Origin: Escherichia coli
Lineage (GTDB): Bacteria; Pseudomonadota; Gammaproteobacteria; Enterobacterales; Enterobacteriaceae
Strand: one strand, 5' to 3'
Assembly: GCF_003334385.1 (NCBI RefSeq)
Contig: NZ_QOWN01000118.1
DNA: 1,258 nt
The translations under genes and the position numbers were made by a program. The notes under the pieces are model-generated. The model was not told the origin of the DNA, searched no databases, and was given only the letters and a program-made list of their open reading frames with translations. Below, in pieces: positions 1 through 39 of this stretch; position 1 is the stretch's first letter; every line of letters begins with the position of its first letter.

Positions 1-39
1 TGATCCTACCCACGTAATATGGACACAGGCCTAAGCGAG
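1..39. repeat. IS3 right terminal inverted repeat (IRR), adjacent to the orfB 3' end
   Basis: Window 1-39 is TGATCCTACCCACGTAATATGGACACAGGCCTAAGCGAG. The reverse complement of window 1220-1258 is TGATCTTACCCAGCAATAGTGGACACGCGGCTAAGTGAG. By my manual ungapped alignment about 28 of 39 positions are identical, including the terminal TGATC and the internal TGGACAC block. Confidence 0.9.

Follow-up and report, generated by a model that had tools for sequence, protein, structure and literature searches.

Element identity and gene content

The window, by which we mean the whole stretch of DNA analyzed here (1,258 nucleotides), is a complete copy of IS3 (1,258 bp) in reverse orientation. Its genes lie on the minus strand, so the element is displayed reversed, with the right terminal inverted repeat (IRR) at positions 1 to 39 and the left one (IRL) at positions 1220 to 1258. 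The main features are:

1 to 39, no strand: IRR, right terminal inverted repeat, downstream of orfB; 28/39 match to the reverse complement of 1220 to 1258, and abutted by 3-bp duplications
31 to 897, minus strand: orfB, 288 aa with an rve/DDE catalytic domain; its product is made as an OrfAB fusion through -1 frameshifting
886 to 921, minus strand: 10-bp stem-loop, putative frameshift stimulator, 5 nt downstream of the slippery site
894 to 1193, minus strand: orfA, 99 aa, HTH_Tnp_1 domain; the ATG at 1193 is the RefSeq CDS start
927 to 931, minus strand: A-AAA-G slippery site where orfA and orfB overlap, 0-frame codons CAA AAG
1220 to 1258, no strand: IRL, left terminal inverted repeat, upstream of orfA; same repeat match, and abutted by 3-bp duplications

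The organization is that of the IS3 family. The overlapping orfA and orfB, the latter in -1 phase, share an A-AAA-G site, and RefSeq annotates them as a joined CDS with the label "programmed frameshift." OrfA has an N-terminal helix-turn-helix (HTH) domain (Pfam HTH_Tnp_1, PF01527, E = 7e-10, residues 12 to 78), and OrfB has a DDE/rve core (Pfam rve, E = 1e-27; rve_2, E = 2e-20) and scores 339 bits against NCBIfam NF033516 (transpos_IS3), for which the curated cutoff is 160. The terminal repeats are imperfect, fall within the family range of about 20 to 40 bp, and end in 5'-TG...CA-3', with TG at 1 to 2 and CA at 1257 to 1258. The target duplication, 3 bp, is within the short (3- to 5-bp) range of the family.

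Over its full 1,258 bp, the window is 100% identical to a RefSeq-annotated "IS3-like element IS3 family transposase," and positions 1 to 1258 of plasmid F (NC_002483.1) and many chromosomal copies annotated as IS3 are 100% identical to window positions 1 to 1258. Of 5,426 complete E. coli genomes, 4,686 contain IS3 matches, and the median number of matching places is 3 per genome. Five independent IS3 insertions are flanked by direct duplications of 3 bp (gac, gta, tac, ttc, and aat) that directly abut positions 1 and 1258, which identifies the window termini as the true transposon ends. The window also agrees with IS3 of E. coli (ISfinder IS3; insE/insF; K-12 chromosome, plasmid F) in all 1,258 bp, in orfA/orfB with the frameshift, in the 39-bp imperfect repeats, and in the 3-bp duplications, and the only difference is the orientation shown. 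Plasmid F (L093) carries two IS3 copies, at 1 to 1258 and at about 15,090 to 16,350, the second adjoined by IS2. Their transposases have two different accessions, WP_085947771.1 and WP_085955200.1, and the window is identical to the first copy.

In many draft genomes, IS3-like elements form stand-alone contigs of about 1,240 to 1,257 bp (L017, L019 to L022, L030, L045, L047 to L049, L052, L059, and others), which start and end at the TGATC tips or no more than two bases from them. These contigs are an assembly artefact of multicopy repeats and incidentally mark the element boundaries.

One of the largest IS families has IS3 as its founding member, and the 39-bp imperfect repeats of IS3 have reportedly been described since the 1980s, by Timmerman and Tu in 1985. 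IS3 and its terminal repeats are thus an already known, textbook case, and identifying them here has little significance beyond correct annotation.

The stem at 886 to 921 is a perfect 10 bp (GACATACTTC / GAAGTATGTC), with the orfA stop codon in its loop and the orfB ATG in its 3' arm. It is kept by compensatory changes in most relatives, e.g., GGTGTACTTT/GAAGTACGCC and CGCGTACTTT/GAAGTACGCG, and is absent in about 10 of the most distant ones. These features are consistent with the stem-loop being the frameshift-stimulating structure of IS3, one that Sekine et al. are said to have described in 1994. A search of Rfam, extended to E <= 1, was negative for the whole window. Two stretches, at 858 to 870 and 1071 to 1083, form a perfect inverted repeat of 13 nt, with arms 200 nt apart (chance of about 0.01 for a window of this size), and one arm overlaps a possible second stem of a frameshift pseudoknot. 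As a conserved structure this repeat was rejected: among 45 aligned elements, pairing in the subset with <75% OrfB identity falls to 4 to 9 of 13 with no compensation, and the repeat probably arose by coincidence or is peculiar to IS3.

Comparison of the two terminal repeats

The original prediction, made from the letters of the window, described imperfect terminal repeats differing at about 11 of 39 ungapped positions and sharing a TGATC tip and a TGGACAC core. Ungapped comparison of 1 to 39 (TGATCCTACCCACGTAATATGGACACAGGCCTAAGCGAG) with the reverse complement of 1220 to 1258 (TGATCTTACCCAGCAATAGTGGACACGCGGCTAAGTGAG) gave 28 matches and exactly 11 mismatches, at repeat positions 6, 13, 14, 15, 17, 18, 19, 27, 28, 30, and 36. 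Both named blocks are present, at 1 to 5 and 20 to 26, and the two ends further share TACCCA (7 to 12), CTAAG (31 to 35), and GAG (37 to 39). Similarity stops at position 39, with 1 further match in 40 to 45 and 2 in 40 to 50.

Shuffled termini matched at a mean of 9.7 positions (standard deviation, 2.7; maximum, 21), and none of the 20,000 shuffles reached 28 (binomial P of about 1e-9). The terminal pair is the best 39-nt inverted pair in the window, where internal pairs reach 27. A gapped alignment had been proposed as a check, with conserved blocks out of position as the contrary outcome; it left all of them positionally equivalent, introducing only compensating 1-nt gaps within 13 to 19 and 27 to 30, for a net block offset of zero. 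What the original prediction overlooked is the CCCA at 9 to 12, the TAAG at 32 to 35, the Dam site contained in TGATC, and the overlap between the right repeat and the orfB stop codon.

Conservation of the ends among relatives

We scanned one genome per species with OrfB and obtained 80 loci with 52 to 91% protein identity. Both ends could be located in 43 of the 80 from the expected offsets and the best TG...CA-anchored repeat, with 3-bp target duplications confirming 5, namely, L039, L041, L046, L064, and L074. Together with IS3 and plasmid relatives, the located ends gave 44 distinct end pairs spanning 52 to 91% OrfB identity. The 44 relatives are phylogenetically nonindependent, so the conservation fractions below, pooled over the 44 end pairs, overstate the number of independent tests:

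TGATC, repeat positions 1 to 5: 0.98 to 1.00
CCCA, repeat positions 9 to 12: 0.82 to 0.99
TGGACAC, repeat positions 20 to 26: 0.85 to 0.99
TAAG, repeat positions 32 to 35: 0.92 to 0.98
A, repeat position 38: 0.93

Conservation is at least 0.97 at 1 to 5, 10 to 11, 21 to 25, and 33 to 34, reaches 0.92 to 0.93 at 26, 32, and 35, and is 0.85 at position 20. Four blocks are kept at both ends across the 44 end pairs. The family-variable positions are 6, 8, 13 to 19, 27 to 31, and 36, and all 11 IS3 mismatches are among them. Left and right ends match at about 27 of 39 positions in near and far subsets of relatives alike. The "72% identity" of the IS3 ends is in effect made up of fixed blocks together with spacers whose identity is close to chance. 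In the window, the blocks and their probable roles are as follows (no strand applies):

1 to 12: outer block of IRR (TGATCCTACCCA), putative cleavage domain, from conservation and correspondence to the 11-bp cleavage domain of IS2
1247 to 1258: outer block of IRL (reverse complement, TGATCTTACCCA), putative cleavage domain, from conservation and the IS2 correspondence
20 to 26: internal block TGGACAC of IRR, putative binding site of the OrfAB N-terminal HTH, from conservation and the IS911 register
1233 to 1239: internal block of IRL, GTGTCCA, the reverse complement of TGGACAC, on the same basis
31 to 35: third block CTAAG of IRR, in which CTA at 31 to 33 reads as the orfB stop codon TAG on the complementary strand
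1224 to 1228: third block of IRL, CTTAG, the reverse complement of CTAAG, noncoding

The third block has a coding role at one end. The orfB stop codon (31 to 33) and the last two codons (34 to 39) fall within the right repeat, so that conservation of YTA at 31 to 33 in IRR is partly forced by the stop codon. The third block of IRL is noncoding, and its conservation therefore does not come from a stop codon.

On a tree built from element interiors, position 20 shows at least 5 changes in IRL and 4 in IRR, and only 5 when the two were treated as a joint character. IRL and IRR thus switched between T and C together about four times, as expected if one protein reads both ends; at spacer positions, changes were independent between the two ends. 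Covariation at position 7 (43 of 44 concordant) was not counted as evidence, because the tree shows essentially one event. The comparative table, with its four blocks, unconstrained spacers, and coordinated T/C switching at position 20, could guide mutagenesis or the design of a minimal IS3 end.

Two plasmid-borne IS3 relatives, L008 from Escherichia albertii and L009 from Salmonella, with 87% and 82% DNA identity, carry TGGATCAC in place of TGGACAC in the right end, where a 1-nt insertion adds a GATC in the presumed binding site. L008 also has an internal deletion and is 1,185 bp long.

Proposed organization of the ends

The original prediction assigned the tip and the internal block to the cleavage and transposase-binding subdomains of IS3-family ends. 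Homology and conservation over the 44 end pairs, with the internal block in the register of IS911, favor that assignment, which was incomplete in naming two blocks where there are four. The experimental basis of a two-domain end in the IS3 family is IS911 and IS2; a literature search found no footprint, gel shift, end mutagenesis, or end-binding study of IS3 itself. The IS2 end consists of an 11-bp cleavage domain on the outside and a domain for protein binding on the inside (Lewis et al. 2012, PMC3299598). For IS911, a passage in PMC3299598 citing Normand et al. 2001 gives block alpha as the cleavage domain and blocks beta and gamma as the binding domain, and states that the N-terminal fragment OrfAB[1-149] protects beta.

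We recovered IS911 ends from Shigella and E. coli plasmids and IS2 ends from plasmid F, where the element measures 1,331 bp and has a 5-bp duplication, and aligned both sets from the tip. Conserved blocks of IS911 lie at 1 to 8, 20 to 27 (TGGCCACC), and 33 to 36, and IS2 has a CCCC run at 9 to 12 and CCAGACA at 20 to 26. Because the account in PMC3299598 comes without block coordinates, we deduced from the IRL/IRR comparison that TGGCCACC probably corresponds to the footprinted beta block. IS3 shows both marks of a bipartite end: a terminal block that both ends and the relatives keep (1 to 5 and 9 to 12) and an internal block (20 to 26) in register with that of a characterized member, where the equation with beta is this deduction.

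The reading we consider highly probable is that the window is a reversed IS3 whose repeats consist of conserved blocks separated by drifting spacers, the outer part serving cleavage and the inner part binding, with blocks assigned to domains by homology to IS911 and IS2. By this analogy, positions 1 to 12 would be the cleavage domain, and 20 to 26 together with 31 to 35 would be the binding site of the HTH domain. The outer 12 bp or so (TGATCYTACCCA) would be set in the DDE (rve) catalytic site of OrfAB, which would cleave and transfer the 3'-CA end; the complement of TG at 1 to 2 would be that end of the transferred strand. TGGACAC would be the sequence-specific site for the N-terminal HTH domain of OrfAB, and YTAAG (31 to 35), one helical turn further inward, is probably part of the same site. 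Transposition would follow the copy-out-paste-in route of the IS3 family, from a figure-of-eight to a circle with abutted ends and then to integration with a 3-bp duplication. A circle pathway with a junction spacer of 2 to 4 bp is attributed to IS3 itself in a passage of PMC3299598 citing Sekine et al. (see also PMC2909936). Host Dam methylation of the GATC in the tips may additionally modulate end activity.

Alternative explanations of the conserved blocks

The GATC sites, which carry no strand, are:

2 to 5: GATC of the IRR tip, a site for Dam methylation
1254 to 1257: GATC of the IRL tip, a site for Dam methylation

Each terminal repeat therefore contains a GATC, as would be seen in an end modulated by Dam, for which Spielmann-Ryser et al. 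are said to have provided the primary source on IS3 in 1991. The TGATC might then be kept mainly as a Dam site that couples transposition to replication through hemimethylation, and not for reading by the catalytic site, an explanation we consider rather improbable. The only two GATC sites of the window lie at the tips, and TGATC is 98 to 100% conserved at both ends among the 44 relatives; however, 3.0 sites were expected, and the count itself is not unusual. Moreover, TGATC is retained in Halomonas (Oceanospirillales), in Thiothrix (Thiotrichales), and in a Desulfuromusa MAG, hosts that we take to lie outside the Dam/SeqA/MutH clade. The IS911 tip, for its part, has the TGA of IS3 and no GATC. 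A secondary statement in PMC4659465 says that IS3 transposition is controlled via hemimethylated GATC, but the cleavage domain of IS2 is bound sequence-specifically by the catalytic center (PMC3299598). Most plausibly, Dam control is a layer atop a tip constrained mainly by transposase recognition.

A promoter function has been weighed for the internal block. TGGACA matches the -35 hexamer TTGACA at 5 of 6 positions and in IRL is oriented toward orfA, a weak candidate for the -10 element following 16 nt downstream; a TAAACT at window positions 1214 to 1219 (repeat positions 40 to 45) is conserved (0.70 to 0.98) in left ends only; and native promoters of the IS3 family usually lie in the left end (PMC12095673). 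It is nonetheless very unlikely that TGGACAC is kept as a promoter element in place of a transposase-binding site. The block is equally conserved in IRR (0.86 to 1.00), where it points inward and antisense to orfB, the best -35/-10 pair (TGGACA-16-AACTCT) scores only 7/12, and TAAACT lies just 14 nt from TGGACA. The promoter scan was negative in IRL and found no promoter above its threshold in either end. The middle block of IS911, equated by our deduction with the footprinted beta, occupies the same register as TGGACAC. Promoter and binding roles could coexist in IRL and lead to autoregulation, and a -35-like role could partly account for the conservation of TGGACAC there. By analogy with IS2, TAAACT inside IRL may serve as a -10 element or as an operator for OrfA. 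A promoter at the circle junction was looked for with a crude in silico scan of IRR, a 3-bp spacer, and IRL, and was rejected: nothing scored above 7/12, and no pair spanned the junction. At the other end of the element, TTGGTG-17-AACAAT on the minus strand at 54 to 82 reads outward through the right end. It matches the outward-directed boxes TTGGTG and CAATTT described earlier for a right end labelled "3R(+)" (PMC12095673), which we assumed to be that of IS3.

The original prediction also suggested that the mismatches might underlie functional asymmetry between the ends. IRL and IRR would then be nonequivalent, for example as preferred donor or recipient in the figure-of-eight, as in IS2, or through unequal affinity for the transposase. 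We consider this unlikely. Strict donor/recipient asymmetry in IS2 is encoded in nonconserved positions of the repeats (PMC3299598), and among close relatives of IS3 (at least 75% OrfB identity) positions 13 to 19 are more alike between left ends (0.82) or right ends (0.80) than between left and right (0.35 to 0.36); the left-end-specific TAAACT just inside IRL points the same way. In the distant subset, however, this end-specific likeness is gone (left-left, 0.41; right-right, 0.50; left-right, 0.42), for which reason we attribute the pattern in close relatives to shared descent and rejected it as a sign of functional asymmetry. All 11 mismatch positions vary across the 44 end pairs, the IRR base at position 36 is explained by the last orfB codons, and both IS3 ends have the canonical 3'-CA, whereas the IRL of IS2 ends in TA. 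The suggestion has thus found no comparative support. The 11 mismatches are mostly unconstrained spacer, with the exception of position 36 in IRR, which is constrained by the last orfB codons, and real end-specific constraints lie elsewhere, namely, in the orfB stop and last codons in IRR (31 to 39) and in the IRL-adjacent TAAACT (40 to 45). Functional asymmetry of the IS3 ends is, on this comparison, not supported. A more elaborate idea, speculative and quite doubtful in our view, is that the ends are unequal through 13 to 19 and 27 to 30 or through strand-specific hemimethylation of the tips, that one end is the preferred donor, with transposition tied to the direction of replication, and that position 20 is a specificity base that coevolves with the HTH domain and separates IS3-like sublineages. 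Conserved blocks separated by drifting spacers, with cleavage outside and binding inside, remain the reading that we prefer.

Comparison with known systems

Like IS3, the elements IS10, IS50, and IS903 have a GATC inside a terminal repeat, and IS3 is distinguished by having it at positions 2 to 5 of both tips, within the putative cleavage domain. IS10 and IS50 have their GATC sites within the inside end and the transposase promoter.

The closest match to the proposed organization is IS911, whose ends likewise have three parts and keep them in the same register: the tip spans 1 to 8 in IS911 and 1 to 12 in IS3, the inner block 33 to 36 and 31 to 39, respectively, and the middle block TGGCCACC is identical to the TGGACAC of IS3 at 6 of 7 positions. 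The two elements also have in common the TGA tip, the 3'-CA end, and production of OrfAB by -1 frameshifting. They differ in that IS911 has 36-bp repeats with the tip TGAAGTGG, which lacks GATC, and no CCCA at 9 to 12. The IS911 blocks are backed by direct footprint and deletion data, whereas those of IS3 are assigned by homology. IS2 resembles IS3 in its outer cleavage domain of about 11 to 12 bp, the C-run at 9 to 12, the inner domain with (C)AGACA at about 21 to 26, and the circle pathway. However, its repeats are 41/42 bp, its target duplication is 5 bp, and its circle spacer is 1 bp, and its IRL ends in TA instead of CA and acts only as recipient, whereas both tips of IS3 are canonical TG/CA.
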